IMG/VR virus record: IMGVR_UViG_3300005680_000091 | Direction: 5' to 3' (one strand) | DNA: 20,000 bases | Origin: an uncultured virus (IMG/VR IMGVR_UViG_3300005680_000091) | Taxonomy: Duplodnaviria; Heunggongvirae; Uroviricota; Caudoviricetes | Part shown: positions 9,126-20,000 of the stretch, one piece after another | Layout: each line of letters starts with the position of its first letter | Position numbering within the stretch: the first letter of the stretch is position 1 | The notes under the pieces: generated by a model | Databases searched by the model: none | What the model saw: only the letters and a program-made list of their open reading frames with translations | What the model was told of the DNA's origin: nothing | Program-made: the position numbers and the translations under genes

Positions 9126-9337
9126 GTACCTCCCGGTGTGTCGCCCACCCCGTTGAAGTCCCGGAACCCCAGAGACAAGGCGGCGCAGGCCAGGGTGACT
9201 GCCTGTGGAATCGTGGCGCGGCCAGTCTCGTAGTTCTTGACCGTCCGGGCGGAGGTGCCCAGCCAATCCCCAAGCTGCTTCTGCGAAACGCCCATGTGTT
9301 CGCGCCAAGCGCGGAATCGTTCTGCCGTCAGAGGCAC
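9122..9337 (-). CDS. XRE-family HTH DNA-binding protein
   Basis: FRAWREHMGVSQKQLGDWLGTSARTVKNYETG; GGAG RBS before GTG. Confidence 0.85.
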   Translation of the reverse strand: MPLTAERFRAWREHMGVSQKQLGDWLGTSARTVKNYETGRATIPQAVTLACAALSLGFRDFNGVGDTPGGT

Positions 9338-9418
9338 GGTGTGTTCTCCAGTTGTTTTGCTCGCTTCGAGGCCTTTCGCACTCGCTTTGCGGTGTTGCTC
9401 TACCTGAAAGCAACTTGG

Positions 9419-11537: not shown

Positions 11538-12505
11538 TTCAGCCACCCCATCAGCGTGTCGGTGTCCGTCGAAAACCCGGCCGCGTTGCGATGCCCACCA
11601 CCGCCGAACGCCTTGGCGATTGCGCTCACGTCGTAGTCGCCGTTGCTGCGCAGCGAGCAGTGGATTTGGCCGTCACCCGCCATCGACCACACGAGGCCGA
11701 ACGTGCCGGACTTGTTGGCGAGTTCGTGGCCCAGATCAGACGCGAGGAACGACGGAGCGTTGGCCGCGAGGCCGAAGAGCGAATAGCGGGTAAACCCATC
11801 AATCACCACTCCTGGTGCGTTGGCGAAGGGCGCCCACTTGAATACTTCGCACTTCTTCGCCTGTTTCAACGCCGCCTGGACGTTTTGGTTATGGGCGCGG
11901 AGGATGGCGATGCCTTCTTTGAAGATGAAATGCGGACCGACGTTGAACTCATCCCACATTTCGAGTTGCTGATTCAGTTCTTTCCACTGCTCGAAGCTCC
12001 ACGGCTCATAACTGCGCAGCGCGGCGTGGAATTCCTTGGTGCCGTCCAGCTTGAACTGCCAGCGGTCGCGGTCGTCGATGTGTTGGATCAGCATTGGCAC
12101 TTCGGTTCCGGGGTGGAAGTATTCCCAGGCGAGATATGCCCCTGAAAAATTGTCGTCCAGAACGACGTAGTGCTTCAGCGGGTCTTCCCCGCCCAACGGG
12201 ATTGCTTGGTAGCGATCCCCTCGACGATAGCCACCACACCACATCTCGAACGCCGTCTTGTGGTGATCGAGCCAGACGACGCGCTTGGCGCGACTGAGGA
12301 GCAGATCCATGACCTCGCGTGGAAACGAGAAATCAAGGACGTAGATGTCCCGTTCATTGATCTCGAACGTGTTTTCGGACTTGCTGTAGTCCTTGCCGTA
12401 ATCCATCGGCAGATACTCGGCCTCATCACCGAGCTTGAGCCATGCTGCGAAGGCCGCACCGAACCCGTCCGTGCAGTTCGCGTGGTAGATGACGAGGGGT
12501 TTCAT
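11534..12505 (-). CDS. DHH/DHHA1-family phosphoesterase (323 aa)
   Basis: Start moved to ATG 12505: VIYHANCTDGFGAA, YVLDFS, VWLDHHKT, SGAYLAW, IDDRDRW, SLRS..DVSAIAKAFGGGGHRNAAGF. Confidence 0.93.
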   Translation of the reverse strand: MKPLVIYHANCTDGFGAAFAAWLKLGDEAEYLPMDYGKDYSKSENTFEINERDIYVLDFSFPREVMDLLLSRAKRVVWLDHHKTAFEMWCGGYRRGDRYQAIPLGGEDPLKHYVVLDDNFSGAYLAWEYFHPGTEVPMLIQHIDDRDRWQFKLDGTKEFHAALRSYEPWSFEQWKELNQQLEMWDEFNVGPHFIFKEGIAILRAHNQNVQAALKQAKKCEVFKWAPFANAPGVVIDGFTRYSLFGLAANAPSFLASDLGHELANKSGTFGLVWSMAGDGQIHCSLRSNGDYDVSAIAKAFGGGGHRNAAGFSTDTDTLMGWLK

Positions 12506-12807
12506 ATCTTTCTCCGGTAGAGCTTCAAAGGTGTTGGGCTGCCGCGGTCGGACTCGACCCGACCGACGCAGTCCAGGTGCCCGAACCGCACCAGTCGGTC
12601 CATCGCGCTGCGGGCGGTGCAGCGGTTCATGTTGAGCTGATCGGCCACCGCGATTGAGGACCAGACGCGGCCATCGGCCAGCAGCGCCAGGATCTGCTCG
12701 CTGCTGGAGCCGGGCACGATGCGCTCGGCCCGGACGGTGTGCTTGCCCGCGCTGGGTGGCTGGGGCGGGGGCTGGTTGGCGGCTTGGAGTTGGGAGAGGA
12801 GGTTCAT
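12502..12807 (-). CDS. Putative winged-HTH DNA-binding protein
   Basis: EQILALLADGRVWSSIAVADQLNMNRCTARSAMDRLVRFGHL. Confidence 0.7.
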   Translation of the reverse strand: MNLLSQLQAANQPPPQPPSAGKHTVRAERIVPGSSSEQILALLADGRVWSSIAVADQLNMNRCTARSAMDRLVRFGHLDCVGRVESDRGSPTPLKLYRRKI

Positions 12808-12822
12808 GTGAGGTGCGCTCCC
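12808..12822. promoter_or_regulatory. Operator-like palindrome GTGAG-gtgcg-CTCCC
   Basis: Fills almost the whole 17-bp intergenic gap and overlaps the RBS. Confidence 0.6.
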
Positions 12823-12824
12823 TT

Positions 12825-13313
12825 TCAGTGCGAATCTGCTGCCGGCTCCAATGCTTGGAGTAGCCGGTGAAGTGGGTTCCGGATCTTGTCGATCTCTTCC
12901 TCAAGCTGGAGCGCTGCAGCCACCGCCCGAGCCCGAGTCAGGCACGCGTCTGCTCGCCTGAACTCAGCCAGTACCGTCTCCCGGGACCGATCCTCTGAGG
13001 TCTTGACCCGCTGGAGCGAGACGTAGCCTTGTCGATCAGGCGGTTGTTGCTGGTCTCGCACGTATTCGGGCACTCGGATCTCAACCGTCTCGGTCACGAT
13101 AGTCACCCGGACGCTGGAGATGTAGTTGCGGGCTTGGTGGTCTCGCCAGGACGCTGCAGCTTCTTGGTCGTCCCACTCAAAGAACTCGTGAAGGGGGTCG
13201 GCCGGGTCTAGGGCGCTTTCCCACAGCTTGCGGGGCGTTACGACACCGTTGGGGTCTGTAGCTTCCAGCGCCTTGATTCTGGCGCGCAGTAGGTCTTCTC
13301 GGCTGTTGGTCAT
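12825..13313 (-). CDS. Partner protein of the RAMP-like gene (162 aa, mostly helical, function unknown)
   Basis: ATGA overlap with the RAMP-like gene. Contains GVVTPRKLWESALDPADPLHEFFEWDDQEAAASWRDHQARNYISSVRV, a motif type I recognise from phage hypothetical proteins. Confidence 0.8.
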   Translation of the reverse strand: MTNSREDLLRARIKALEATDPNGVVTPRKLWESALDPADPLHEFFEWDDQEAAASWRDHQARNYISSVRVTIVTETVEIRVPEYVRDQQQPPDRQGYVSLQRVKTSEDRSRETVLAEFRRADACLTRARAVAAALQLEEEIDKIRNPLHRLLQALEPAADSH

Positions 13314-14074
13314 GCTGCCACCTTGAACCCGCGCGCTGCGGCCGTGCGGTTGAACCAGTCGAGTAGTTCCTCGGTGGTCAGGTCATAAGCCACCGGGTTG
13401 TCGAACGCGGCCTGCTGTGCGTCTCGACCGCCGGACTGAATGATGCGCAGGAAGTCAGGGTCGTCCGGGTTGCAGATGCTGAATTGCCCGTAGGATCCCT
13501 TGCCCTTCTCAGGGCGCCAGTCTCCGACGCCGATCGTGATGCCTGCTGCCGAGACGAGGTTGATCATCGGCGGCTGCTTGAGCAGCGGCGACACGAACTT
13601 GACGCGGATCTTCGTCGCCCACTCCCTCATGATCGCGCGGGTTCGCACGTCAGGGGTCTTGGCCATGTCTGCCGAGCGAACGGTCGTGCTCAAGACCTCG
13701 GGCACGCCCCAGACCGGGATCAGGTCTCCGGCCACGAACACAAGGCGGCCAATCGAGGCCTTCGAAATTCCCGGCAGGTCCAGCGCTGCGGTCATCAGCG
13801 CACCCTTAAACGCCGTGGCCGGGATGCCGACCAGTGTCGGGCCGCCTTTTACGCGATGGGCGGACGACCTGAACTCGGCGATCGGGTCGTGCTTCAGACT
13901 CGAGGCCTTCTCGGCTGCGTTCTTTTTCGGCGCCGGGAACAACAGCTCGCGCATCGATCGTTCGCTGATTGCGTTGTGGATGAGGGGGCTGTTTCCGATG
14001 ATGCAGAGGTTCAGCTCCTGCGTTTCGATCTTCAGCACCTCAGGTGCTGCCGTTTCCGTCTTCTTCGTTGCCAT
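13310..14074 (-). CDS. Stand-alone Cas7/RAMP-like RNA-binding protein (Vipr-like, 254 aa)
   Basis: Start ATG 14074 with AAGGAG RBS. RAMP-like motifs in the expected order: first strand LCIIGNSPLIHN; GIPATAFKGAL (cf. IPGSSLKGAL of Csm3/Cmr4-type RAMPs); C-terminal Gly-rich loop GITIGVGDWRPEKGKGSYGQF. Confidence 0.75.
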   Translation of the reverse strand: MATKKTETAAPEVLKIETQELNLCIIGNSPLIHNAISERSMRELLFPAPKKNAAEKASSLKHDPIAEFRSSAHRVKGGPTLVGIPATAFKGALMTAALDLPGISKASIGRLVFVAGDLIPVWGVPEVLSTTVRSADMAKTPDVRTRAIMREWATKIRVKFVSPLLKQPPMINLVSAAGITIGVGDWRPEKGKGSYGQFSICNPDDPDFLRIIQSGGRDAQQAAFDNPVAYDLTTEELLDWFNRTAAARGFKVAA

Positions 14075-14097
14075 GTCCTTCTCCTTGTCTGAGTAGT

Positions 14098-14362
14098 GCT
14101 CCATGCACTGGGAGGGCACCTCTTGAGAAGTGCCTACCCGCTACATGCGCCATGTCCTGTCAAACCCCGCCACGCCACACCCAGCCCCGCCGTGTCTATG
14201 AACTGCTCGGCGCTTCACGCACCGGGAGGGCACCTCTTGAGAAGTGCCTACCCGCTACATGCGCGTCACCTAGCCCCACCGGACCCCGCCGCGCCGGGCC
14301 TCGCCTAGTCTACGAACTGCCTTTGATGCTTCACGCACCGCCAAGGGTTGGCTCCCTTGGCG
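14098..14362 (-). ncRNA. Putative guide-RNA array: two ~115-nt units with (GGY-NN)n tracts between conserved hairpin-containing repeats
   Basis: 46-bp direct repeat at 14105-14150 and 14219-14264 (1 mismatch). Conserved 5' element CGGTGCGTGAAGC-N5/7-GCAGTTCRTA. Ten-pentamer tracts at 14261-14310 and 14147-14196. Hairpin GGCACUUC-UCAA-GAGGUGCC. Confidence 0.8.
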
Positions 14363-14374
14363 CTACGAAGTAGC

Positions 14375-14707
14375 TCAGGCGGTTGCGTCCTCCAGCGCCG
14401 GCGCCGCCTCGATAACCGCGCGCACGCTCTTCTCGTTGCGGCCGGACATGAACTTCTTCCAGGCGGCCTTCGCGGCGGCCGGCAGGCTGCCCCGGTTGGC
14501 CGCCAGGACGGCGTGCGGGATGTCCAACACCTTGCGCCCGCTGCGCAGGTCGGTGATCCGGTAGAGGCCGATCGTGTCGTGCGCCTCGTGGACGCCGAAC
14601 CAGAACTGCGTGTTGTCGACGGTGACGCGGAAACGGTGGCCGACCACGTCGCGGGTTTCGTTGGTGCCGTCGCGGGTCGGGGTGTAGATGCGGAATGCGG
14701 AGGTCAT
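14375..14707 (-). CDS. Hypothetical protein
   Basis: 110-aa ORF, AAGGAG RBS, ATGA coupling. Confidence 0.75.
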   Translation of the reverse strand: MTSAFRIYTPTRDGTNETRDVVGHRFRVTVDNTQFWFGVHEAHDTIGLYRITDLRSGRKVLDIPHAVLAANRGSLPAAAKAAWKKFMSGRNEKSVRAVIEAAPALEDATA

Positions 14708-14919
14708 TTCAGATGCTCCTTCCAGTCCCAGACCGCCTGCCGTGCCCCTTCATCGAACGGGTGGTAGCTGGCCTCGGGGTTGATGTAATCCAGGAGTTCA
14801 TCGGGCGTGAAGTTGGTAGCCAGCAGCTCTCCGGCGGCCCACCTATATCCGGATTCGTACTGCCACTGGCGACGTTGCGAACGGTGTTTGTGCCACCAGG
14901 CTTTGATGGTTTTGATCAT
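14704..14919 (-). CDS. Hypothetical protein (71 aa)
   Basis: Start moved to ATG 14919 (MIKTIKAWWHKH...); ATGA overlaps on both sides. Confidence 0.7.
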   Translation of the reverse strand: MIKTIKAWWHKHRSQRRQWQYESGYRWAAGELLATNFTPDELLDYINPEASYHPFDEGARQAVWDWKEHLK

Positions 14920-15125
14920 CGTGTCATTTCCTTCTGGTTGCGCCGGGCCGCCTCTTCCATGGCCTGGTCGAAGTAGTTGATCCGGCCGCGGGCGCCGACC
15001 CGGCCGATGTGCTTGGCGCGTCCGGTGTGGGCGTGGCACACGTACCAGGCCTTGCCGATGGAATTGACACCCCACGGGCCGGCCGGCCAGCCCTTGGGGA
15101 AGAAGTGGGGTTGGCAGACGGCCAT
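14916..15125 (-). CDS. Hypothetical protein
   Basis: 69-aa ORF with AGGAG RBS. Confidence 0.7.
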   Translation of the reverse strand: MAVCQPHFFPKGWPAGPWGVNSIGKAWYVCHAHTGRAKHIGRVGARGRINYFDQAMEEAARRNQKEMTR

Positions 15126-15127
15126 GC

Positions 15128-15481
15128 TTAGCGCTCCTGTCCTGTGGCGCGGGCGTAGGCGGCGCGCGCTCTCGCCCGCCAGTCGTCATCCAGCGCGACG
15201 CGCGCCGCGTCGTAACCCCACTGGTTCGGGTTTTCCTGGCCGATGATTTCGCGCAAGACGGACACAAGCCCGGTCCGCACCGCGAACCGCTGTTCTGCGC
15301 AGACCAACGCGCGGTGCATGCGAGTGACCGTACCTTCAGGTAGGCCAGTGTTTCGCAGGAAAGCCAGCACGTCTTCGTGATCCTCACTCGCGCCTTCTCC
15401 CTCGAGGAGGCCCTTGATCTGCTCATTGACGAGCCACAGCGGGTGGTCGTCATCCAGTTCGTCGGTGATCTTGTGGCTCAT
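15128..15481 (-). CDS. Hypothetical protein
   Basis: 117-aa ORF with AGGAG RBS. Confidence 0.75.
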   Translation of the reverse strand: MSHKITDELDDDHPLWLVNEQIKGLLEGEGASEDHEDVLAFLRNTGLPEGTVTRMHRALVCAEQRFAVRTGLVSVLREIIGQENPNQWGYDAARVALDDDWRARARAAYARATGQER

Positions 15482-15654
15482 GCTGCGCTCCTGTGGGCCG
15501 CCCGGAGTGCTTCAGTCCAGGTGCAGCCGGTCTGTCGTTGAAAAGCCTTTGCGCTGCGGATCTCGTCTTGCGCGCGATCCTGCTCGGCCTGTCGGAGGTA
15601 GCGCTCACGCGCCGATTCAATCTGTCGGCGCTGCGCGGTGGTGATGCTCTTCAT
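15478..15654 (-). CDS. Hypothetical protein (58 aa)
   Basis: MKSITTAQRRQIESARERY...; GAGGAG RBS; ATGA overlaps. Confidence 0.65.
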   Translation of the reverse strand: MKSITTAQRRQIESARERYLRQAEQDRAQDEIRSAKAFQRQTGCTWTEALRAAHRSAA

Positions 15655-16214
15655 GCTGCACTCCTCTTCAGGTGGTTCAACTCTTCGAACTGGGCCACGT
15701 AGGTCCGGGTGAGTTCCGGCGACGAGAACACCAGCTCCCCGGTCTCTTCGTCCTTGGCCGAGTACCAGAGCGGCGACTGCATCGCGATCAGCACCTGGTG
15801 GCGCATCCACTCGGCGTCCGGGAAGGCGCGCTGTGCCGGCGCTCGGGCCGCGGTGCGCAGGCGGCGCATCACGTTCTGCACCTTCGCGCGCCAGTTCGGA
15901 TCCGCGGCGAGCACTTCACCCATCGGCCGGCGGGCGGCTTCGTCCTCGGCGGCGATCCGCAGTGCGAGGTCGGTGGCTGTGTAGGTGCGCGTCGAGTATT
16001 TCGGCACGCTGTCCGGCGTCTCGGACACGGTGGCCAGGCCTTGAGCGCGCAGGCTCTCCAGGATGCGGACCCGGTAGTCGTCCATGCTCCAGTAGGGGCG
16101 CGTGGTGATCGGGCCGCCGACCAGCCGGCGCAGCGCCTGGATCTGGTCAAACTCCTCATCGGCGTGGCCGCTGGCGTAGCGCGGGTGAGGCAGCATGCGG
16201 GTGCGGGTCGTCAT
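15651..16214 (-). CDS. Hypothetical protein
   Basis: 187-aa ORF, GGAG RBS, coupled. Confidence 0.75.
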   Translation of the reverse strand: MTTRTRMLPHPRYASGHADEEFDQIQALRRLVGGPITTRPYWSMDDYRVRILESLRAQGLATVSETPDSVPKYSTRTYTATDLALRIAAEDEAARRPMGEVLAADPNWRAKVQNVMRRLRTAARAPAQRAFPDAEWMRHQVLIAMQSPLWYSAKDEETGELVFSSPELTRTYVAQFEELNHLKRSAA

Positions 16215-16468
16215 CGTGTGGTCTCCAGTTGCGTGTCGATCTTGCGGATCACCTCGAGGTAACGGGGTTGGCCCGCGCCACGCTTGAGGTGTTCGATGTC
16301 GCGCCGCGCATCGGATGTGAACATTTCACGGTTGGCGTGGGCGTAGCGCCAGTGGATCCGGTCTCGGTGGGCCAACCCGGCGCCGCCGATTGGCTGACCT
16401 CGGTAGGTCAGCCTGTAACCGCATGCGGCGGCGGTGAAGGAGAGTTGGCTCGGGTCGAAGGCGGGCAT
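16211..16468 (-). CDS. Hypothetical protein
   Basis: 85-aa ORF, GGAGGA RBS. Confidence 0.7.
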   Translation of the reverse strand: MPAFDPSQLSFTAAACGYRLTYRGQPIGGAGLAHRDRIHWRYAHANREMFTSDARRDIEHLKRGAGQPRYLEVIRKIDTQLETTR

Positions 16469-16532
16469 GGTTCAATCCTCCGGCCAGGGCGGCACGTCGT
16501 CGTAAGGGGTGTGGAGTTGCATCTCGTTCTCC

Positions 16533-16931
16533 TCAGAGGATGGTGTAGCGCTCTGCGAAGCGACGTTGCGCCTCGTCCGCTTGGTAGCGGGTGACGCACA
16601 GCTGCGGTTCGGGCGGCTTTTCCCAGACCGCGGTCTGCTGCACATCGACGAGGAACCAACCCTTCGCGCGACGCTCGAGGGTGACCATCGTTGCTTGGCG
16701 GCTGTACTTGTAGTACTTCGCCACGCGCCCACCTGACCAGGTGTGGAACCGGGCGCCTTTCCAGAGCTTGACCGGCAGCCCCAGTTCGCCAAGCCGCGAG
16801 GAAGCGAGGTCAGCTTCGGCCTCGATGTCGCTGTAGCAGTTGAAGGTGTGGGTCAGGGCAGCTCCGTTGGCTTTGTGCAGGGCCGCCTCAATGGCGACGG
16901 CGTTGTCTTCGTGAATTCGGATCGGCTTCAT
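16533..16931 (-). CDS. Hypothetical protein (132 aa)
   Basis: Start moved to ATG 16931 (MKPIRIHEDN), GGAG RBS. Confidence 0.75.
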   Translation of the reverse strand: MKPIRIHEDNAVAIEAALHKANGAALTHTFNCYSDIEAEADLASSRLGELGLPVKLWKGARFHTWSGGRVAKYYKYSRQATMVTLERRAKGWFLVDVQQTAVWEKPPEPQLCVTRYQADEAQRRFAERYTIL

Positions 16932-16950
16932 GGTGTGGTCTCCGGTTGAA

Positions 16951-16973
16951 GAAGGGGAGCCCGGCTCCCCTTC
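16951..16973. promoter_or_regulatory. Palindrome/hairpin GAAGGGGAGC-ccg-GCTCCCCTTC containing GGGAG-N5-CTCCC
   Basis: 10-bp perfect stem, intergenic; core motif at 16955-16969. Confidence 0.65.
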
Positions 16974-16980
16974 AGGTCGA

Positions 16981-17880
16981 TCAGTGCGCCAGCTCGAGGG
17001 CGTGCGCTTCGTCGGCGGTGCGCTCGTCCGACTCGAACCAGCCGGCCGGGGCGACAACCTGGGCGAGGCGATCGGCCAGCGTCCAGAGCGCGCGGTTCAG
17101 TTTCACGTCCTGATCCACGCCGGTCACTGCGCGGGTGGTGGTGCGTCGGCCGTTGCTCGAGCGCCCGCGCAGCCCACCCTTGATCAGGTTCTCCTGGATC
17201 CGGTTGAACGTCGTGAAGAGGTCGTTCTTGCGGTCCTCGAAGCGGCGGGCTTCCAGCAGCGAGCTGGCCAGGATCGGCGCCTTGGCCGGGTCGTCATACT
17301 TCAGGGTAAGCGCCGCCTCGGCCAGGGCGCGCTGCTGGTGGTCGGACAGCGAGATGCTGCGGTAGGCCTGGATCCGGGTGGTGGCGGCCTCGATGTTGTC
17401 CAGCGTGCGGATGCAGCCGTCGATCACGTCGTCGACCAGGTTCTGGCGTCCGCGGTGCAGCACCTTGGTGTCGTCGCAGATGTCACCGGCGACCAGGCCG
17501 TTGTCGCAGATCATGCGGAAGAAGCCGGTCATCAGGCGGTACGAGCTCGAGCCGTCGTGGCTGTTCAGCAGCAGGATCTCCGGCGTGATGCCTTCGACCA
17601 TCGCGCTGTTGGCATGGCGTAGCCGCAGCAGGTGGCGAGTGTGCTCGCGCTTGCCTTGGTCGCGCACCCGGGTCTGGCGGGCCTCGAACGGCTCGAAGCC
17701 GGCGTCGCGCAGCCCGGCCAGCACCGAGCTGGTAGGGATGAATCCGTAGCGGTCGCCGCGGCTCTCGTGGGCTTCCTGGGCGAACACACTCGGCGCGGCG
17801 CGCAGGATCTCGTCGTTGGTCAGGGGGCGGTCGCGGCGGATGATGGAACCGGAAGCGGCGGCGGATGCGTAGCGGATCAT
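16981..17880 (-). CDS. DUF932/DUF945-family protein (299 aa)
   Basis: Start ATG 17880 with AGGAG RBS; APSVFA..AHESR..RY.FIPT, EHTRHLLRLR, EILLLNSHDGSSSY....GFFRMICDNGLV, FNRIQENLIKGG, KLNRALW. Confidence 0.9.
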   Translation of the reverse strand: MIRYASAAASGSIIRRDRPLTNDEILRAAPSVFAQEAHESRGDRYGFIPTSSVLAGLRDAGFEPFEARQTRVRDQGKREHTRHLLRLRHANSAMVEGITPEILLLNSHDGSSSYRLMTGFFRMICDNGLVAGDICDDTKVLHRGRQNLVDDVIDGCIRTLDNIEAATTRIQAYRSISLSDHQQRALAEAALTLKYDDPAKAPILASSLLEARRFEDRKNDLFTTFNRIQENLIKGGLRGRSSNGRRTTTRAVTGVDQDVKLNRALWTLADRLAQVVAPAGWFESDERTADEAHALELAH

Positions 17881-17967
17881 GGTGATTCTCCTGGTTGTGA
17901 GGCGTACAGGTGCGCCTGGGGGAAACTGCACTCGGCTGCCCGGGTGGGCAGGCGGCTGGAGTCTCAG
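17881..17967 (-). repeat. Intergenic structured element, copy 1
   Basis: Core 17926-17967 is similar to 19191-19234; CTGCCC/GGGCAG stem. Confidence 0.75.
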
Positions 17968-18044
17968 CGGCGGACGATCTCGGTCACGAGGTAACCCACC
18001 ACGAGGCCAATCAGGGAGACGACGAGGGCGTCGGTGCAGGTCAT
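17964..18044 (-). CDS. Small membrane peptide (26 aa)
   Basis: MTCTDALVVSLIGLVVGYLVTEIVRR; ATGA overlap. Confidence 0.45.
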   Translation of the reverse strand: MTCTDALVVSLIGLVVGYLVTEIVRR

Positions 18045-18307
18045 CGCGGCACCCTCGCGTTCGTGCGGCCGTACTGGACGGGGTAGCACTTCAAGCAGTT
18101 GAGCCCAAGTCCATGGGGGCACGGCGGCAGCTGACCCGGACCGCCTTTCTTCGGCACCCCGAGACCCTTGTAGAACTCGTCGGCGGTCATCGGCCGGTGA
18201 GTGACCGCATCCGCGCCGCAGCTCGGGCAGTTCGGCACCGTGTTCGCGACTTGGTACCACTCGTAGTGGTGGCCGCAGTGGCAGCAGGTTCGAGACGTCA
18301 TCGACAT
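18041..18307 (-). CDS. Small Cys-rich zinc-binding protein
   Basis: CCHCG, CPSCG, CPHG..NCLKC; GAGGAG RBS. Confidence 0.65.
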   Translation of the reverse strand: MSMTSRTCCHCGHHYEWYQVANTVPNCPSCGADAVTHRPMTADEFYKGLGVPKKGGPGQLPPCPHGLGLNCLKCYPVQYGRTNARVPR

Positions 18308-18308
18308 T

Positions 18309-18491
18309 TCAGGTCTCCTCAGTTCGGTTCGGTTCGTCGTCAGGCGACCACCAGGTGTAGAAGCCGCCGTCGGGCGACTCAGCCCACACGACCGGCTCGC
18401 CGTCGCTGTTTCGCTCGGTGCCGTAGGCGGCGATGTTGCCCTCGCGTTTCTCTTGTGCGGCCAGGGCGAGGGCTTCGTGGATCGTGGTCAT
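18309..18491 (-). CDS. Hypothetical protein (60 aa)
   Basis: Start ATG 18491 (MTTIHEALAL), GAGGAG RBS. Confidence 0.7.
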   Translation of the reverse strand: MTTIHEALALAAQEKREGNIAAYGTERNSDGEPVVWAESPDGGFYTWWSPDDEPNRTEET

Positions 18492-18501
18492 GGTGGTCTC
18501 C

Positions 18502-18717
18502 TCAGTGCGTGGTTGCCGGCCGGCAAAGCCCTTGCTCGATGAGAGACGCGGCGGTCCTGCCGTACCAGCCTTGAAGCGTCCAGGCGGCGCCGGTGTCGAT
18601 GAGGTGCTGGAAGGCCTCGAGGATCTCATCCTCGGTGTGCTCTTCCCCGTCGAAGCCTTCGATCATCGCGCAGCAGTCGAAGGTGGTCAGCGTGGCGCGG
18701 GTGGTGGTGGTGGCCAT
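18502..18717 (-). CDS. Small phage hypothetical protein (71 aa)
   Basis: Start ATG 18717, GGAG RBS. FQHLIDTGAAWTLQGWYGRTAASLIEQG motif resembles a recurrent phage family. Confidence 0.8.
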   Translation of the reverse strand: MATTTTRATLTTFDCCAMIEGFDGEEHTEDEILEAFQHLIDTGAAWTLQGWYGRTAASLIEQGLCRPATTH

Positions 18718-18732
18718 GATGATCTCCAGAAG

Positions 18733-18753
18733 AAGGGGAGCGCTGCTCCCCTT
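18733..18753. promoter_or_regulatory. Palindrome/hairpin AAGGGGAGC-gct-GCTCCCCTT containing GGGAG-N5-CTCCC
   Basis: 9-bp perfect stem; near-copy of 16951-16973. Confidence 0.65.
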
Positions 18754-18757
18754 TTGA

Positions 18758-18856
18758 TCAGACGAAAAGCCAGGGCAGCACAACCAGCGTGCCGACCAGG
18801 GCGAAGAAGATGGCGGCGCCGATCAGCGACTCGCCGAGGGTCTCGCGGCGCTTCAC
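18758..18856 (-). CDS. Small membrane peptide (32 aa)
   Basis: GTG start overlapping the upstream stop; KRRETLGESLIGAAIFFALVGTLVVLPWLFV. Confidence 0.5.
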   Translation of the reverse strand: MKRRETLGESLIGAAIFFALVGTLVVLPWLFV

Positions 18857-19143
18857 GCTGCCGCCTTCAGCGCCACCTGACGCTCGCGCACCTTCAGGGT
18901 GGTCCGGGTGCCCTCGCGGCTGCAGGCGGTGATCTGGGCCGGCGTGAGCAGCGCCTTCACCTTCTTGGTGTCGAGCGAGCAGGTCTCGGTCGTGGTGACC
19001 TCGATCTCGGCGACGCGCCCGGCGTAGAGGCCATCGCCTTCAGCCTTGACGGCTTCTTTGATCGCGTCGAACTCGGCGGCGAGCGGGGCGATGAGGGCCT
19101 GGAGCTCCAGGGCGCGGTCAATCAGCTTCTTGGTGATCTTCAT
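18853..19143 (-). CDS. Hypothetical phage protein
   Basis: 96-aa ORF, GGAG RBS; N-terminal coiled coil, LDTKKVK motif. Confidence 0.8.
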   Translation of the reverse strand: MKITKKLIDRALELQALIAPLAAEFDAIKEAVKAEGDGLYAGRVAEIEVTTTETCSLDTKKVKALLTPAQITACSREGTRTTLKVRERQVALKAAA

Positions 19144-19234
19144 GGTGGTTCTCCGTTTTTGCGCGTAGGAGTGCGCGGGGTGGGTAGAGGCTGCACTCGA
19201 CTGCCCTGATCGGGGCAGGCGGCTGAAGTCTCAG
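19144..19234 (-). repeat. Intergenic structured element, copy 2
   Basis: Core 19191-19234 is similar to 17926-17967. Confidence 0.75.
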
Positions 19235-19440
19235 GACTTGGCGACGAACTGGACGGTGCGCGGATCAACACGAGGGGTGAAGTCCCGCTCGATCAGGAAG
19301 ATGTCGCCGTTGCTCCACTGCTCGGCTTTCTCGAACGCGTCGAGTTCGAGCGGTGCGCCGCGGAGGTCGCAGGGTTGCACGCCTTCGATCGGGAACACTG
19401 CGCCGTGGGTGCGGCGAGTCGGGAGCTTGATGTTGGTCAT
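19231..19440 (-). CDS. Hypothetical protein (69 aa), first gene of the leftward early operon
   Basis: Start ATG 19440 (MTNIKLPTRR), GGAG RBS. Confidence 0.7.
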   Translation of the reverse strand: MTNIKLPTRRTHGAVFPIEGVQPCDLRGAPLELDAFEKAEQWSNGDIFLIERDFTPRVDPRTVQFVAKS

Positions 19441-19499
19441 GTCGTTCTCCAGCTGGTTGGTTGGAGCAGCGACCTCGTGGGAAGTCGCTCTTCTCAACC

Positions 19500-19520
19500 G
19501 AGGGGAGTGCCGCTCCCCTC
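19500..19520. promoter_or_regulatory. Palindrome GAGGGGAG-tgccg-CTCCCCTC
   Basis: Contains GGGAG-N5-CTCCC (19503-19517); lies in the operon leader. Confidence 0.65.
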
Positions 19521-19678
19521 TGGTGCGAGTCCGTTATCGACTCGGTGCCTCTGTCGCCTATCCACCTGTATCTTCGGTGGGTCTTGGGGTCCGACGGATT
19601 GCAGCTCCGTCTCGGCATTCCCTTCTTACGGTCTGGGCTACCGGTTTCGAGGCGCTGTTCTGTCTCTCAACGGTTCCC

Positions 19679-19707
19679 ATGATAGTGAGTCCCGCTCACC
19701 TCGTCAA
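19679..19707 (-). promoter_or_regulatory. Strong leftward sigma70 promoter with an operator in the spacer
   Basis: Minus strand TTGACG (19707-19702), 17 bp, TATCAT (19684-19679). A/T-rich UP-like tract upstream. GTGAG-tcccg-CTCAC (19685-19699) sits between the boxes. Confidence 0.85.
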
Positions 19708-20000
19708 GTAGTTTTTTCCAGAAAAGTGGAAAAATAAATCAGCGGTATTTTTGGGCAGGAGTGGGGGAGTTTTCGAGGTTTTTGCCCCACCTACCACCCC
19801 CTACGGCCCGCAAACCCGCGCCAATGCTGGAAGTTGATGATGCGGGACGCATAAGGTGGGGGAGAGGGGGGCGACCCCGTATACTTCCCCGCGCCAGAAA
19901 TTTCTCCCGCGTGGTTCTCGTGGTGGTCTTTTTTCTACTCCCTATTTTTCTCCCCAGTAGATATTTCTCTATATTCTCCCCTACTCCCCTACTATTATTA

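Follow-up and report, generated by a model that had tools for sequence, protein, structure and literature searches.

The window, by which we mean the whole 20,000-nt stretch of DNA analysed here, is phage DNA in which primase, helicase and Cro-like genes are present, and within a long run of minus-strand genes it carries two guide tracts, a gene for a Cas7-fold protein and an accessory gene. This locus is a VIPR system, a known type of CRISPR ancestor, in which Vipr is a RAMP homolog (RRM core, G-loop and thumb), the vrRNA has 9-16 tandem GGY/NN pentamers and a vap gene is present (10.64898/2026.04.26.720920, which also defines the GGY/NN guide and a targeting code that skips one base). Here, the RAMP homolog lies outside any CRISPR locus, the tracts are of the GGY/NN kind, and the two-gene phage locus includes a vap-like gene; no CRISPR-like repeat array is found among the window's 20 largest repeat families. 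An earlier account made from the letters alone (the sequence-only reading) had described the array and left the system unnamed. Three copies of a structured cassette flank the two guides (n+1 around n), each with the order small hairpin H1, long stem H2 and a hairpin, H3, that begins with RGUG. The features, following the minus strand, are:

19679..19707, minus strand: sigma-70-like promoter, 10/12 consensus matches (0.6 expected by chance)
14325..14374, minus strand: leader cassette, no guide in front; H1 14374-14362, H2 14361-14340, H3 14339-14325
Between 14340 and 14339, minus strand: predicted cut of the leader cassette; H2 of 8 bp, without distal box
14311..14324, minus strand: linker RGCAG-TTCRTA before guide A, from the sequence
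14261..14310, minus strand: guide tract A, 10 pentamers, 8 of them GGY/NN; the first is GAC, the last CGC
14209..14262, minus strand: junction cassette 1; reduced H1 14262-14254, H2 14253-14224, H3 14223-14209; by pair table and folding, H2 is a 13-pair stem with a 2x2 internal loop and U-G/U-A at pairs 11/12
Between 14224 and 14223, and possibly between 14252 and 14251, minus strand: cuts of cassette 1 predicted from the register
14197..14208, minus strand: linker AGCAG-TTCATA before guide B, from the sequence
14147..14196, minus strand: guide tract B, 10 pentamers, 7 GGY/NN and 3 GAC/NN
14095..14148, minus strand: junction cassette 2; H2 14139-14110, the same as H2 of cassette 1; H3 14109-14095, with compensatory changes
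Between 14110 and 14109, and possibly between 14138 and 14137, minus strand: cuts of cassette 2 predicted from the register
14081..14086, minus strand: vipr ribosome binding site AAGGAG, from the sequence
13310..14074, minus strand: vipr gene, 254 aa, RAMP (Cas7/Csm3-like) fold
12825..13313, minus strand: accessory gene (vap-like), 162 aa; no Pfam family, phrog_15946 of unknown function

The junction is the window's top direct repeat (53 nt, 94% identity, spacing 114), and the motif RGTGCRTGRAGC has three exact matches in the window, all inside the array (five with at most one mismatch, where 1.15 are expected). The leader hairpin at 14339-14362 has a folding z of -3.4, and no Rfam family reaches its gathering score anywhere in the window. 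Checked against the sequence, the units proposed in the sequence-only reading (unit A, 14340-14225, 116 nt; unit B, 14224-14111, 114 nt; spacers N7 and N5) proved correct, as did the positions of its hairpins (14229-14248 and 14115-14134), of a third 5' motif (14110-14098) and of a 9-bp leader hairpin (14339-14362). However, the 3' hairpin and the 5' motif that it listed separately are one junction element, made of the top of H2 plus H3, and the third motif is not degenerate, as it had been called, because its changes are compensatory within a 5-bp H3 (the three window stems, each of 5 bp, are GGUGC/GCAUC, GGUGC/GCGCC and AGUGC/GCACU). The sequence-only reading saw no dedicated promoter for the array; the only sigma-70-like promoter found in 12500-20000 lies 5.3 kb upstream (19707) on the same strand and is the likely source of an early polycistronic transcript, and no minus-strand terminator was found in 12500-20000. 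The same array sequence also occurs in two other loci (L056 and L064), which are not independent support since both look like the same phage as the window. Target searches remained at chance level: exact 18-base patterns from guide A gave one match in viral contigs, failing at both flanking units, and those from guide B gave none. Guide A has no self-target within the window.

Pattern scans for the leader motif found other copies next to guide tracts. One of the 29 matches in the first scan (L033) lay within a guide array, and 179 copies, of which 139 are distinct, were parsed from 91 loci. Eight of the 139, with an H2 longer than 32 nt, were dropped, so that the element set comprises 131 distinct copies with a central stem of 20-32 nt; all 80 loci listed by a scan of genome contigs were kept out of it because the rows inspected resembled chance matches. 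Near-identical H1 and H3 hairpins lie beside guide tracts in L033, L042 and L048-L065. In L033 (1435-1815), a cassette comes after each of three guide tracts, every time of another subtype; with no vipr match in its flanks (about 2.5 kb on each side, L043), this is possibly a solo array.

The cassette is a widespread family, and its structure is conserved beyond the letters used to find it, as the stem interior and the 3' strand of H3 both lay outside the search patterns. In a 42-row alignment of H2, 90.9% of cells are paired and 139 cells are changed on both sides, which exceeds all shuffles and slid registers; two pairs in the same alignment hardly vary, a U-G (41/42) and a U-A (42/42). H2 covaries freely except at the positions read by E. 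coli RNase III. At least five H3 pairs form in 98 of the 131 copies, compared with 23 in shuffles. A covariance model from homologous loci, named in the sequence-only reading as a check, was built from 50 copies, all from other loci, and ranked the window's three copies first, with 41.0 bits for junction cassette 1 (E 3e-9), 28.5 bits for junction cassette 2 (E 4e-6) and 23.1 bits for the leader cassette (E 8e-5). The counts for the family overstate the number of independent events, since the elements are related.

The cassette can also fold as a single rod, which is within 2 kcal/mol of the three-hairpin fold in 85/131 copies. Loops 1 and 3 pair above permuted partners (259 vs 211, sd 9, a difference not corrected for relatedness), and YAGC and RGUG, both conserved, are able to pair below the cut, mirroring part of the proximal box; their conservation is not independent evidence because the letters were fixed by the search pattern and parser. 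Among 99 matches to the distal box, 70 have guides on both sides, 15 have one upstream only and 14 have no upstream guide (of these, seven, read by eye, also lack the 5' strand of H1). The 14 fit a boundary element rather than a tail only. Two other structures were considered and dropped. A pseudoknot of the H3 loop with a downstream UUCRU is possible at two window guides only, the third copy having no partner, and a tRNA-like reading of the three hairpins finds neither a T-loop nor an acceptor stem.

The window copies bear what we take to be a superficial likeness to the cores of twister and hairpin ribozymes. Twister, pistol and hairpin ribozymes, compared by their cores, were dropped because the loops expected to make up the catalytic core are free to vary among homologs and because Rfam has no match to a ribozyme, either in 14000-14450 (E up to 10) or in 16 related loci (E up to 1). 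The same two observations make it very improbable that the cassette is a self-cleaving ribozyme, even though hammerhead-interspersed arrays do exist in VIPR types I and V (10.64898/2026.04.26.720920).

E. coli RNase III recognizes a distal box (U-A/U-G, with the U-G stringent) and a proximal box (G-C, W-W, A-U, W-W) (PMC1540722, available text). We converted these into a six-position score, with the box-to-cut distance set by the numbering of that paper on T7 R1.1. Over the 131 elements, the mean score of 3.37/6 at the junction register falls to 0.31-1.10 when the register is shifted by 1-4, and a score of at least 4 is reached by 59/131 at the junction register and by none at any other shift. 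The signature fits one register only, in which the predicted 3' cut falls between the H2 stem and RGUG. Among the 101 long stems, 90 have U-G at pair 11 and 79 have U-G and U-A at pairs 11/12 (31/46 when counted over stem types less than 80% alike), and the inhibitory G-C or C-G at pair 5 is found in only 4/131, which agrees with the proximal box for the family as a whole. The lower half-site is off-consensus at two places, with a G.G or G.A mismatch in 131/131 and C-G at pair 0 in 123/131; natural RNase III sites are often poor fits to the consensus (PMC5371410, available text). In hairpins of the same loci taken as controls, the distal box occurs in 24/1282, compared with 64 of the 77 elements that, out of 97, pass the same filter. 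With a loose scanner, it gives 57 rows in the window and matches near tracts in 41/91 loci of the window's Vipr clade; since a match to the distal box alone is that common, our argument depends on the register being fixed beside guides and not on single matches.

We therefore consider it probable, on comparative sequence evidence, that the scaffold is a processing cassette for VIPR guide RNAs that is cut by the host's RNase III, and likely that this enzyme, rather than either phage protein, is the nuclease. A hairpin module shaped like an RNase III cutting site would explain how guides can be released without a dedicated processing protein. The proposal that hairpin plus motif marks cleavage sites gains comparative evidence from these results, with the amendment that the two are one element whose stem is longer than the 8-bp hairpin first described.

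The SUSP1 system of Felixounavirus offers a parallel. As in the window, a hairpin with the same distal box stands before each guide: all four are directly preceded by a hairpin scoring 5/6, whose predicted 3' cut is at most about three bases away from the first pentamer. However, the SUSP1 tail is a pseudoknot without H1 or H3, and the cassette model gives no SUSP1 match. Hairpins resembling T7 R1.1 (5 or 6/6) can be listed in SUSP1 (L307/L316; also L044) at L307 296-323, 428-456, 1561-1588, 1709-1736 and 1852-1879; they lie before all four guides and after three, and the predicted guide RNAs are about 105, 121 and 116 nt. T7 R1.1 itself has the same stem top as the window site (U-G/U-A/C-G), G at pair 6, a similar stem length and a position in an early transcript (PMC1540722, available text). 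The window site differs from R1.1 in its 2x2 loop (pairs 4-5), in the two alternative capping hairpins on its flanks and in its predicted release of guides.

Within the window, the match is weaker than in the family. Both junction copies score 3/6 and have the distal U-A/U-G, which is absent from the leader copy; a G-C at pair 3 is followed by two mismatches, U.U at pair 4 and A.C at pair 5, and of the proximal box the G-C position alone agrees with E. coli rules, from which the preferences of the host may differ. According to the available portions of the literature, a G-C substitution at pair 3 lowers cleavage 14-fold in a minimal substrate in vitro (PMC1540722), and the pair-5 position is paired, strongly as A-U, in 95-97% of E. 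coli double-cut sites (PMC6212723). The same double mismatch is also present in 30/97 homologs. In the lowest-energy rod fold, the 3' cut of the junction copies has 13 pair positions above it and at least eight below, where the E. coli length rule asks for at least 11 pairs from cut to loop and about 22 overall; the leader copy, with eight pairs above the cut and no distal box, is below the 11-pair minimum and would depend on its lower stem. Internal loops are known to confine cleavage to a single strand without abolishing it (PMC1540722, introduction), and in our analysis a single nick guided by the internal loop appears likelier in the window copies than a double cut. Cleavage of these copies may also be weak.

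It could be argued from these departures that RNase III binds here and cuts poorly or never, that the cassettes are decayed or regulatory, and that guides act within a longer transcript. The mismatched proximal box, the G-C at pair 3 in both junction copies, the short leader stem and the reduced H1 would all agree with this, and substrates that bind yet resist cleavage exist (PMC1540722, available text). Against it, the distal box, the compensation in H3 and the rod pairing have all been retained, T7 R1.1 is itself mismatched at pair 3, and internal loops, according to the same source, restrict cutting to one strand without preventing it. We regard decay as quite unlikely, and continue to favour cleavage by RNase III.

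The leader of the same early transcript contains a separate RNase III-like hairpin (19463..19493, minus strand), which precedes the first ribosome binding site; this hairpin has a U-G/U-A/C-G top, G-C at pair 6 and A-U at pair 5, and is placed like a T7 early processing site. Short cassette-like copies without guides also lie between early genes at 19181-19235 and 17916-17968 (minus strand; 12.2 and 19.7 bits). They possibly represent a general element of phage mRNA that gave rise to the guide cassette.

The only PDB sequence match of the window's Vipr is SUSP1 Vipr, over the G-loop region (E 0.003 alone, E 1.9e-4 by profile), and its structure model (pLDDT 84.9) has Cas7/Csm3-family CRISPR subunits as its listed fold matches (best E 1.6e-5). 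Its identity is about 24% to the LESphi2 protein and 24-31%, over partial alignments, to the short type. At 254 aa it lies outside the VIPR type II clade (about 20 kDa), with which the window has the cassette alone in common. The accessory gene overlaps the vipr stop and has a homolog within the flanks near vipr in 82/91 clade loci, and an Atlas search with its protein returned unnamed viral clusters only. Both proteins belong to a clade with staggered-looking arrays, going by the Fig. S18 legend of the discovery preprint (10.64898/2026.04.26.720920). Staggered arrays have short boundary motifs such as GGCAG, whereas the window's guides are parted by a 64-nt structured spacer.

The cassette pattern is found in 0/91 loci of this clade, and the covariance model run over 69 of them gives at best 19 bits (E 0.017); of the 49 element-bearing loci with a vipr match, 48 are nearer to the short Vipr type. 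Since none of the 91 close relatives of the window's Vipr carries the cassette, it looks imported, and import into a staggered-type system is the simplest reading of the sequences. At least three GGCAG motifs lie in or beside the tracts of 73/91 clade loci, and a phase-shift test, which is a weak one, gives 267/300 for GGCAG vs 556/925 for other GGC pentamers. RGCAG has been retained directly after H3 before both window guides, and we infer for the linker at 14311..14324 a role as possible remnant of the clade's GGCAG boundary motif. Other boundary motifs (GGCTGAC, GGCGGTCA, GGCGGTAG and GGCTGTCA) stand in place of GGCAG in six staggered loci of the same clade (L344, L372, L373, L379, L383 and L398). 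Eight clade loci (L364-L367, L377, L406, L413 and L347) have no pentamer tract in their flanks, several of them ending at contig ends, and in L001-L003, relatives with arrays downstream, a long conserved hairpin lies about 100 nt upstream of the vipr start.

These motifs allow for another source of the RNA ends, with the hairpins only blocking exonucleases and Vipr, the accessory protein or some other nuclease cutting at the RGCAG linker. Both window guides are preceded by RGCAG, the 73 clade loci with at least three GGCAG are all without a cassette, and the fold of Vipr is that of a RAMP, a group that also includes RNA-cutting proteins such as Cas6. We think this unlikely, as RGCAG follows H3 in only 11/131 homologous cassettes, and such cutting would leave unexplained both the fixed U-G/U-A in a freely covarying stem and the register in SUSP1. 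Alongside the favoured cleavage by RNase III, the linker could serve in a second trimming step in this phage.

The cassette is probably the constant region of the published Pseudomonas fulva (P. fulva) prophage clade, because it is carried by eight loci in which Vipr agrees with the P. fulva protein at all nine named residues (10.64898/2026.04.26.720927, available text). The type II system of P. fulva has the same kind of GGY/NN array beside vipr and vap, with the same junction element; in E. coli it shows clear vrRNA expression and co-purification with Vipr (10.64898/2026.04.26.720920). In the available text of the P. fulva papers, the constant part is called an invariable 3' tail (10.64898/2026.04.26.720920; 10.64898/2026.04.26.720927). 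A structure is given there for the SUSP1 tail only, and no processing enzyme is named.

We propose the following route of maturation. The array would be transcribed inside the phage's early polycistronic mRNA, and each cassette is predicted to fold as a rod in which H2 is extended by pairing of YAGC with RGUG. RNase III would read the distal and proximal boxes and, going by the register, cut between the stem and RGUG, with a possible second cut two bases into the 5' strand. The freed 5' end would fold into H3 and so cap the downstream guide; a single nick would leave the upstream guide with H2 as its 3' hairpin, and a double cut would leave it with a short tail. Nicking would yield RNAs of 116 and 114 nt, and double cutting RNAs of 88 and 86 nt. 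Vipr, judging from its family membership, would coat the GGY/NN tract and target DNA by the published one-base-skip code, and the third cut would also create the 5' end of the vipr mRNA. The predicted cuts (between 14340 and 14339, 14224 and 14223, and 14110 and 14109) lie one base from the processing boundaries of the sequence-only reading, and its suggestion that unit-length RNAs are released without Cas6 draws support from the comparative evidence.

The repeats of CRISPR arrays are processed by Cas6 or, in type II, by tracrRNA plus RNase III. The likeness to the window lies in the n+1 constant elements around n guides and, for type II, in the use of a host RNase III. By contrast, the window has no cas6 or tracrRNA, its double-stranded substrate is intramolecular, and the cassettes within one array differ in sequence.

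A more general idea, to which we give slightly less than even chances, is that type II VIPR arrays in general are matured by host RNase III, and that the cassette is a portable two-state module, cut as a rod and refolding to cap both product ends. It would have been derived from phage early-mRNA processing sites and swapped here into a staggered-type VIPR, making effector and maturation route exchangeable. The window itself adds a natural chimera, with the effector of one clade and the probable processing module of another. If the RNase III route is true, VIPR relies on an enzyme of its host, with consequences for host range and counter-defence, and the cassette supplies a design rule for multiplexed guide arrays. 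The route also makes base-level predictions that can be checked against existing small-RNA data for SUSP1 and P. fulva.

The system is known, and the proposed maturation by RNase III is probably undescribed so far. RNase III is not named in the running text of the four relevant VIPR preprints found by full-text search outside subscription journals, and how type II guides are excised from arrays is unstated in the text of those searched. The term RNase has no mention in the text or supplement of the discovery preprint, figures and data files apart (10.64898/2026.04.26.720920), and occurs once, as RNase A, in the available text of 10.64898/2026.10.15.759431; a further preprint relevant to VIPR, available in part, is 10.64898/2026.10.21.760802.

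Several minor observations concern other elements. In L047 (Gordonia phage MakoManhole; about 1375-1420 and 2710-2880), guide tracts are parted by a tRNA-like mini-element with an acceptor-like stem and a T-arm with a TTCGA loop, a possible module for processing by RNase P/Z; arrays with such elements receive no mention in the discovery preprint text. In L083 (1646-1866), a C4 antisense RNA with its a1/b1 target and an isrK-like RNA lie beside a cassette-bearing guide array. In the window, a GC-rich hairpin occurs in two copies before early genes (16948-16972 and 18729-18753), as do three similar ribosome-binding segments (9334-9354, 16211-16231 and 16928-16948); these are the repeat families D18 and D3. 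Finally, a perfect 21-nt inverted repeat (1700-1720/1768-1788), its arms 47 nt apart, is situated between divergent genes.
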